Origin: Eledone cirrhosa
Taxonomy: Eukaryota
Reading direction: 5' to 3'
Assembly: GCA_964016885.1 (NCBI GenBank)
Contig: OZ024753.1
Span: forward strand, 31,558,001 to 31,622,000
Length of the DNA: 64,000 nucleotides
Shown: piece by piece, positions 17,776 to 19,616 of the stretch
How the letters are laid out: every line of letters begins with the position of its first letter
Position numbering within the stretch: the first letter of the stretch is position 1
Notes under the pieces: model-generated
The model's database searches: none
Seen by the model: the letters and a program-made list of their open reading frames with translations, nothing else
What the model was told of the DNA's origin: nothing
Translations under genes and position numbers: made by a program

Positions 17776-18120
17776 TTATATATATCTATATATTTATTTA
17801 TATATATCTATATATTTATTTATTTATAAAAACAAATAACGAAACGAAATTAAATTTCGTTTCGTTTGTAACTCACTTTTGTATGTCTGACGCTTAAACA
17901 ATTAAGTTAAAAATATACATCCACATATGTATACTGAAATACTAGTATGCATATGAATACACACACGTATACATATGTAGATATACCGAGTTTTTCACTG
18001 GTCACTTTACTGTGAGTGTCCAGCTATTCTGTATGTAAACACACAGACAAACCGGTTTTTAGAGTCATACTGGTTTTTGAGGAAATACCTTTCCTCTATT
18101 CTCCAGAAAGCCAGACAAGG

Positions 18121-18165
18121 AATATTGAACTAGTTTCGATGTTGTTACATCTCATCAGCAATATT
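18121..18165 (-). ncRNA. Type I hammerhead ribozyme, unit 1 (GUU site)
   Basis: AAUAUUG CUGAUGA GAUGU-AACA-ACAUC GAAA CUAG UU/ CAAUAUU. Confidence 0.92.
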
Positions 18166-18586
18166 TACCTATCTTCCGGCCTTTCTAGAGAATCGTAAAA
18201 GCACATATCGTTATATGCTTTTTCTATGAAAATTAGTAGTGGGCAGACTAATTTGCATAGAGCGTGAGTACGTAACGGTTCAACGGAGACGATAAAAACA
18301 AATAACGAAACGAAATTAAATTTCGTTTCGTTTGTAACTCACTTTTGTATGACTGACGCTTAAACAATTAAGTTAAAAATGTACATCCACATATGTATAC
18401 TGAAATACTAGTATGCATATGAATACACACACGTATACATATGTAGATGTACCGAGTTTTTCACTGGTCACTTTACTGTGAGTGTCCAGCTATTCTGTAT
18501 GTAAAGAGACAGACAAACCAGTTTTTAGAGTCATACTGGTTTTTGAGGAAACACATTTCCTCTATTCTCCAGAAAGCCAGACAAGG

Positions 18587-18631
18587 AATATTGGACTAGT
18601 TTCGATGTTGTTACATCTCATCAGCAATATT
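18587..18631 (-). ncRNA. Type I hammerhead ribozyme, unit 2 (GUC site)
   Basis: AAUAUUG CUGAUGA GAUGU-AACA-ACAUC GAAA CUAG UC/ CAAUAUU. Confidence 0.93.
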
Positions 18632-19052
18632 TACCTATCTTCCGCCCTTTCTAGAGAATCGTAAAAGCACATATCGTTATATGCTTTTTCTATGAAAATT
18701 AGTAGTGGGCAGACTAATTTGCATAGAGCGTGAGTACGTAACGGTTCAACGGAGACGATAAAAACAAATAACGAAACGAAATTAAATTTCGTTTCGTTTG
18801 TAACTCACTTTTGTATGACTGACGCTTAAACAATTAAGTTAAAAATGTACATCCACATATGTATACTGAAATACTAGTATGCATATGAATACACACACGT
18901 ATACATATGTAGATGTACCGAGTTTTTCACTGGTCACTTTACTGTGAGTGTCCAGCTATTCTGTATGTAAAGAGACAGACAAACCAGTTTTTAGAGTCAT
19001 ACTGGTTTTTGAGGAAACACATTTCCTCTATTCTCCAGAAAGCCAGACAAGG

Positions 19053-19097
19053 AATATTGGACTAGTTTCGATGTTGTTACATCTCATCAGCAATATT
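19053..19097 (-). ncRNA. Type I hammerhead ribozyme, unit 3 (GUC site)
   Basis: Same sequence as unit 2. Confidence 0.93.
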
Positions 19098-19518
19098 TAC
19101 CTATCTTCCGCCCTTTCTAGAGAATCGTAAAAGCACGTATCGTTATATGCTTTTTCTATGAAAATTAGTAGTGGGCAGACTAATTTGCATAGAGCGTGAG
19201 TACGTACCGGTTCAACGGAGACGATAAAAACAAATAACGAAACGAAATTAAATTTCGTTTCGTTTGTAACTCACTTTTGTATGACTGACGCTTAAACAAT
19301 TAAGTTAAAAATGTACATCCACATATGTATACTGAAATACTAGTATGCATATGAATACACACACGTATACATATGTAGATGTACCGAGTTTTTCACTGGT
19401 CACTTTACTGTGAGTGTCCAGCTATTCTGTATGTAAACACACAGACAAACCGGTTTTTAGAGTCATACTGGTTTTTGAGGAAACACCTTTCCTCTATTCT
19501 CCAGAAAGCCAGACAAGG

Positions 19519-19563
19519 AATATTGAACTAGTTTCGATGTTGTTACATCTCATCAGCAATATT
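19519..19563 (-). ncRNA. Type I hammerhead ribozyme, unit 4 (GUU site)
   Basis: Same sequence as unit 1. Confidence 0.92.
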
Positions 19564-19616
19564 TACCTATCTTCCGGTCTTTCTAGAGAATCGTATTTTT
19601 AACTTAATTATTTATT

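Follow-up and report, generated by a model that had tools for sequence, protein, structure and literature searches.

A tandem array with a hammerhead motif in each 466-nucleotide unit in Eledone cirrhosa, a likely non-LTR retrozyme with the insertion ends of Penelope-type elements

Described relatives and the array at the locus

Non-LTR retrozymes of metazoans are tandem repeats of non-coding units with less than 45% GC, which have one type I hammerhead in each unit. Their monomers are self-paired, they are dispersed as dimers to long multimers with duplications longer than 4 bp, and they co-occur with Penelope-type elements (PLEs). The available parts of PMC7229834 and of the preprint bioRxiv 10.64898/2026.07.22.740005 show RNA and cleavage for metazoan retrozymes, and both propose their mobilisation by PLEs and the synthesis of tandem cDNA from circles, in those parts without an insertion anatomy. 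The same parts of the preprint report a pLTR phylogeny in Xenopus, sizes of 51-972 bp and cleavage in 1 of 9 dimers, and include no molluscs. For the giant squid genome, 235 Rfam hammerhead matches are counted, with nothing further on them in the available part of PMC6962438. The literature searched holds no description of a cephalopod retrozyme family or of two-armed retrozyme insertions, matters on which the supplements of PMC7229834 and of the preprint may bear, and none of editing or rolling-circle evidence for retrozymes.

Endonuclease-bearing PLEs are found as partial tandems with an inverted 5'-truncated copy, as described in the available part of PMC8557442, and with a tail at one end. 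In the corresponding part of PMC11167929 both strands of the target are nicked and extended, and two internal starts of reverse transcription delimit the tail. Their targets are AT-rich, their duplications measure 8-10 bp (PMC8557442, PMC3846280, as far as available), and their hammerheads have a palindromic helix III. Newt satellite 2 and axolotl HHR_Amex1 (PMC7229834, PMC4209133, PMC2220036, each as far as available) have a helix III of one pair with a palindromic tetraloop and are cleaved efficiently as dimers; this one-pair helix III with a palindromic loop is presented as a dimer-dependent design in the available part of PMC4209133. An internal snRNA-type promoter is reported for satellite 2. 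MRC1 of Chlamydomonas (PMC8557442, same part) is non-coding and forms multicopy head-to-tail insertions by PLE machinery, and derivatives of this type generally have 3' sequence in common with an autonomous family and no canonical hammerheads.

The repeat described here resembles all of these in part. It has the traits of metazoan non-LTR retrozymes given above, and it adds two inverted arms, two fixed ends, (TA)n targeting and editing scars, which are not described in the available parts of the retrozyme papers; unlike those retrozymes, it is known from genomic sequence alone. It shares the listed features of endonuclease-bearing PLEs, but it has no ORF and no detectable similarity to the PLE terminal repeats examined, its tail is about 70 nt long instead of 30-40 nt, and both of its arms can be multimeric. 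Its unit has a putative counterpart of the satellite 2 promoter in an octamer-like motif, whereas it is larger than the units of newt and axolotl and unrelated to them in sequence. In contrast to MRC1-type derivatives, no autonomous partner was found.

The window, which is the whole stretch of 64,000 nucleotides analysed (contig OZ024753.1, positions 31,558,001 to 31,622,000), was initially annotated with a tandem array of 466 bp at 17826..19613. The period is real, as TRF gives a period of 466 with 3.8 copies and 98% matches at 17826-19595, while the right end has to be moved, since the periodicity stops at 19595. Beyond it lie a short inverted arm and a target duplication, both absent from the initial annotation. 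The parts of the locus are as follows, with the phases of the unit counted from the predicted cut site and with A and B as the two fixed outer ends of the family.

17818..17827, no strand: left copy of the target-site duplication, 10 bp, ATTTATTTAT, inside a TA/TTTA microsatellite
17828..19595, minus strand: long arm of 3.8 tandem units, with the ribozyme sense on the minus strand; its outer 3' end is the fixed A site (phase 300-302) and its inner 5' end is at phase 397
17828..17899, minus strand: tail between the B and A sites, at one end only, containing a long hairpin
18105..18176, minus strand: type I hammerhead motif, GUU, predicted cut 18128/18127
18571..18642, minus strand: type I hammerhead motif, GUC, predicted cut 18594/18593
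19037..19108, minus strand: type I hammerhead motif, GUC, predicted cut 19060/19059
19503..19574, minus strand: type I hammerhead motif, GUU, predicted cut 19526/19525
18594..19059, minus strand: predicted cut-to-cut monomer of 466 nt (also 18128-18593 and 19060-19525)
18717..18724, minus strand: octamer-like motif ATGCAAAT in a hairpin (also 18251-18258 and 19183-19190)
19596..19609, plus strand: short inverted arm of 14 nt, phase 215-228, which ends at the fixed B site
19610..19619, no strand: right copy of the target-site duplication, ATTTATTTAT

Hammerhead motifs and fold of the monomer

The four minus-strand hammerheads stand 466 nt apart, each with a 7-bp stem I, CUGAUGA, a 5-bp stem II and GAAA, and their predicted cut positions agree with the sequence, all as initially annotated. 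The GUC or GUU site given there is also correct: the inner pair of motifs has GUC and the outer pair GUU. The Rfam model HH9 matches all four (36.5-38.9 bits, E 4e-7 to 2e-6), although these scores lie below its gathering score of 52. Rfam matches to miRNA and sraA models in the window are also below gathering and were rejected as low-complexity noise.

Helix III, absent from the initial annotation, consists of one base pair and a palindromic CUAG loop. Its weakness suggests that cleavage would need two motifs. The modelled energy of the double hammerhead is about -17.6 kcal/mol, compared with about -1 for two single active forms (core stems only), and the minimum free energy structure of the isolated motif is the inactive form.

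The cut-to-cut monomer, with 35% GC, has a branched fold with a minimum free energy of -147 kcal/mol (z -8.3), which none of 100 shuffles equals in stability, and 64% of it is paired as a circle. Among 45 aligned monomers stem II shows a compensatory swap, with A-U in 23 and U-A in 22, and two-sided changes occur at 6 of 140 predicted pairs, a kind of count that related copies inflate. The octamer-like motif is common to the array family and to the sister family described below, and it may be a promoter element.

No credible ORF had been seen in the array, and indeed the longest ATG ORFs of the circularised unit have 27 aa in sense and 50 aa in antisense. With tandem units of 466 bp in 3.8 copies, a type I hammerhead in each, low GC content, no long ORF and a dispersed distribution, the array has every sequence-level feature of the non-LTR retrozymes, the class first proposed for it; cleavage and circular RNA are predicted. 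Two parts of the initial annotation are weak or unsupported. The size of 466 bp, thought to be at or above the long end for the class, is just over the 150-450 bp of PMC7229834 but within the 51-972 bp of the 2026 preprint, as far as these sources were available. The term viroid-like has no support either, as no antisense hammerhead core was found in the unit, which thus appears to lack the ribozymes in both polarities of a viroid-like replicon.

Insertions across the genome and resident PLEs

The window array is likely one insertion of an abundant non-coding family, a non-LTR retrozyme with PLE ends. The exact pattern of the hammerhead core has 7,819 matches in the genome and its reversed control has 0, so the motif is not due to chance. 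The exact B-end junction has 757 forward-strand matches, the reverse count being inflated by overlaps, and the exact A-end junction has 2,255, with 0 for its control. The genome-wide search for other arrays thus gives more than 2,000 insertions of the 466-base repeat. Many dispersed copies in the 3.0-Gb genome have 94-98% identity to the unit of the window, and one subfamily is about 9% diverged.

A more distant sister family of about 424-440 nt is present at L046 (5440-6977), where it is two-armed, L056 (2460-3510), L107 (1510-2025) and L161 (3850-4275). It keeps the helix III palindrome, the end hairpin and the octamer-like motif, has GUA as its site and is retrozyme-like. At L092 (2947-7711) a retrozyme insertion is apparently interrupted by a LINE-like element with a frame of 1,040 aa. 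Some loci hold very long arrays with internal sub-structure, of over 100, 50 and 31 units (L059-L061 and L120-L121; L036-L038; L098-L099), which suggests later expansion at the DNA level.

A typical insertion is formed by two head-to-head arms in (TA)n, which have their 3' ends outward, one at phase 300-302 (A) and the other at 228-233 (B), 69-74 nt apart. Scoring by script of 108 loci, 52 of which had been chosen by their A end, gave 76 with A+B, 0 with A+A, 0 with B+B and 32 with an unscored or cut-off end. Twenty further loci that were selected for a B end and had no A end listed were read by eye and comprise 11 with A+B, 7 in which the other end could not be resolved and 2 with B+B, one of them complex, and the rule that B+B never occurs was rejected on their account. 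Target duplications, mostly of 9-11 nt, are present in 13 of 28 informative loci, compared with a mean of 0.9 and a maximum of 4 after shuffling. The window locus fits this anatomy, with its A end at 17828, its 14-nt B arm and ATTTATTTAT on both sides. Eleven A-end loci without an exact hammerhead match were considered as possible PLEs and rejected, as they are short or variant retrozymes.

Inner ends of the arms are scattered (6 of 168 at the cut, 3.6 expected, p 0.15), and 146 of the 168 arms cross the cut site at least once, some of them dozens of times. The junctions between arms mostly overlap by 0-9 nt, and the one at the window locus has a microhomology of 1 nt. Fold-back self-priming was rejected as the source of the inversion, since equal phases meet at only 5 of 56 junctions, and three of these lie at an internal hairpin. 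Phases 215-302, which hold the end sites and the tail between them, vary less than any other part of the unit (1.5% against 3.3-4.6%), which would suit a recognition element. We infer that priming is of the PLE type and takes place on ribozyme-sense RNA. Mobilisation by PLEs, which the initial annotation had given as a proposal for the class, has its genomic footprints here in the two fixed ends, the inverted arm, the (TA)n target and the duplications of about 10 bp, and mobilisation of this kind is very probable for the family.

The window and its flanking loci hold several PLE families. A young Hydra-type PLE, to which the ORF at 1614-3581 of the window belongs, has 68 scored matches with 95-100% identity and frames of up to about 828 aa, and carries (TA)n flanks and the RWR, DKT, CxCX5C, CxxC and CxH motifs given for the Hydra clade. 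Its copy in the window (1140-3700, ORF on the minus strand) is 5'-truncated, intact frames of 828 aa are found elsewhere, and its 3' region has AT-rich repeats of about 135 bp. In 30 loci of this PLE no convincing canonical hammerhead core was found, though the clade reportedly carries one, and no similarity to the 466-nt monomer. Scores of 22 PLE-like 3' regions against the monomer are at shuffle level, and no PLE with terminal similarity to it is present in about 1 Mb of fetched DNA, a small sample of the genome. The unit itself has no ORF longer than 50 aa and hence no RT and GIY-YIG ORF of an autonomous PLE. The likeliest donors of the enzyme would be the (TA)n-targeting PLEs of this genome, among which the Hydra-type copies have intact ORFs.

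Other features of the window were recorded alongside. PLE-like ORF fragments with C-terminal GIY-YIG-like motifs adjoin (TA)n at 29240-30013 (plus strand) and 42984-44340 (minus strand). An element with inverted arms lies between (TA)n tracts at 20013-22635, with a hammerhead-like motif at 20184 (minus strand), the copy of which near 22560-22590 is without the core. Other hammerhead-like cores are found at 3760-4030, 36626, 23664 and 56674-56685; the 3945-type core, with a palindromic helix III, is found again in 11 fetched loci, possibly as the terminal repeat of a PLE. An exon-like frame at 61879-62214 (plus strand) has a weak match to ANF_receptor (E 5e-4, below cut-off), and the window could be part of a receptor gene or close to one.

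Shared A>G changes and the nature of the template

In the proposed mechanism the ribozyme strand would be transcribed, perhaps from an internal promoter, and the transcript would be cleaved through a double hammerhead, which is proposed because the ACUAGU palindrome can pair between two motifs. The 466-nt monomer would be ligated to a circle, and hairpins of the circle would be A-to-I edited. A PLE endonuclease/RT would nick both strands of AT-rich DNA about 10 nt apart, site A would be the start of one cDNA and site B, as a rule, that of the other, each would circle the template for a variable distance, and the two would be joined at short microhomologies. At the window locus one cDNA would have become several units long and the other would have halted after 14 nt.

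Changes private to one locus, read on the ribozyme strand, bear on the template. A tally of 109 loci, which left out L148 as a duplicate of L147 and pieces more than 12% diverged or shorter than 30 nt, gives 15 A>G and 1 T>C among the 28 private changes common to all covering units, compared with 22 A>G and 25 T>C among the 200 private changes of single units (Fisher p 0.001). A first tally of 52 loci (A>G 12, T>C 5, p 0.09) was not significant because one locus of a diverged subfamily gave 19 apparent private changes. The preceding base is U in 10 of the 15 shared private A>G changes, and U before the edited A is the preference of ADAR. Variants present in at most 8 loci are A>G in 33 cases and T>C in 5, and a further count gives 74 A>G against 14 T>C for shared changes and 39 against 46 for unit-specific ones. 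Shared clusters of A>G occur in 11 loci, several of them related by descent, and those of T>C in 0, whereas unit-specific clusters number 2 of each. The bias is uneven among loci, as 7 of the 15 shared private A>G changes come from L157 and a count by locus gives 8 against 2 (p 0.06). It did not recur in another 20 loci, whose 4 changes include no A>G and 1 T>C, and private changes present in both arms show none (A>G 2, T>C 1, of 9), being too few to show one.

L157 carries 11 rare A>G changes at phases 314-432, which are common to its covering units, and the genome has just three copies of the edited motif, one in each of three consecutive units. Since its arm starts at phase 333 and ends at 229, two or more copies of the tract must have been inserted, unless conversion duplicated it afterwards, which fits repeated reading of one edited monomer. 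The shared A>G excess as a whole speaks for a single edited monomer, probably circular, that was copied repeatedly. A triple A>G change at L110-11, which removes the octamer-like motif, was rejected as a private variant, since it is found in 71 units at 7 unlinked loci (the sub-lineage of L110-111 and L123-L129); identical arms therefore do not prove that one molecule was copied.

Internal divergence is under 0.3% in 17 of 49 multi-unit loci. The window array is the most heterogeneous of the 49 (1.75%), and its units differ from one another at 2-12 sites. One of its pieces reads as a fragment close to the consensus and another as an L031-like monomer; a further monomer has five other changes, the terminal piece has four rare ones, and the remaining unit is recombinant, best explained as a later local duplication. 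The units carry different haplotypes, some alleles of which are also present at other loci, and one circle cannot give this mix without later conversion or template switching. Either the locus is thus old and has undergone partial conversion, or several templates were copied; by itself it gives no support for a single-circle template.

The preferred reading is that a Penelope-type enzyme copies self-cleaved, likely circular 466-nt units into a staggered break, starting at each of its two nicks. This is probable, as is the repeated copying of a monomer circle, even with the mixed window array counted against it. In the available part of the preprint 8 of 9 Xenopus dimers are without cleavage in vitro, cleavage is not needed for insertion in that of PMC11167929, and the tail of 69-74 nt exceeds the 30-40 nt of known PLEs. 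The same two-site priming by a PLE could have used as its template an uncut read-through transcript of several units, in which the hammerhead would be a passenger or rarely active. The available part of PMC11167929 gives unprocessed RNA as the dominant substrate of the anole PLE, helix III is weak, identical haplotypes recur at several loci, and copying of a mixed source array would fit the mixed haplotypes of the window. Such copying, however, predicts fresh edits specific to units, where A>G and T>C are nearly even while shared changes carry the A>G excess, no other place in the assembly holds a source of the L157 tract, and the phases of the L157 arm call for at least two copies at insertion; a read-through template is unlikely. 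It is more doubtful still that the enzyme copied linear cut monomers, jumping from the 5' end of one monomer to the 3' end of that monomer or of a different one, without a covalent circle. L129 ends in 1.2 units of another haplotype, and the change falls between phase 466 and 109, an interval that would accommodate the cut site; one arm (L188) begins at phase 1; and the window units may represent different monomers, with one duplication added later. Jumps of this kind are at odds with inner ends that are not enriched at the cut, with arrays of up to 25 units that are identical or nearly so and with hammerheads that are mostly exact across unit junctions, and the switch in L129 is the only one that can be placed near the cut.

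Propagation of the circle at the RNA level as well, in a viroid-like manner, with genomic arrays as recordings of a replicating RNA population, is highly improbable. The triple A>G haplotype, identical at its unlinked loci, would agree with it, as would the runs X4 and X5, labelled as two other organisms, each with just one contig, 30 nt longer than the monomer; transcription of one source array from an outside promoter, together with trace contamination, is a simpler explanation. These contigs, of 495 or 496 nt, are about 98% identical to the array (window 17932-19388), and one of them goes back on itself. The two runs have no real cover of the Hydra-type PLE, at a depth of 4-10, which is too shallow to inform, and neither horizontal transfer nor an RNA origin is concluded from them. 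An ordinary DNA satellite spread by amplification at the DNA level, or an assembly artefact, is the least credible origin, and is largely refuted: the family occupies thousands of dispersed sites, its ends are fixed and its targets duplicated, its A>G excess is strand-specific, and an independent public run exactly matches the unique left flank and covers the window array. Amplification of DNA stays as a secondary process, to which the sub-structured arrays of 31, 50 and over 100 units and the window unit that resembles a local duplication point.

The preferred reading, copying of self-cleaved and likely circular units by a PLE enzyme, concerns a class that is already known, whose proposed mechanism can be tested through the insertion footprint. 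The PLE end signature is present in thousands of young insertions, which pinpoint the two priming sites, and a defined small RNA with its start sites and its target offers a handle for a test of rolling-circle target-primed reverse transcription. Priming from both strands offers an explanation of the tail and the inversion of PLEs, and the A>G changes suggest that RNA editing feeds heritable variation into this repeat family.
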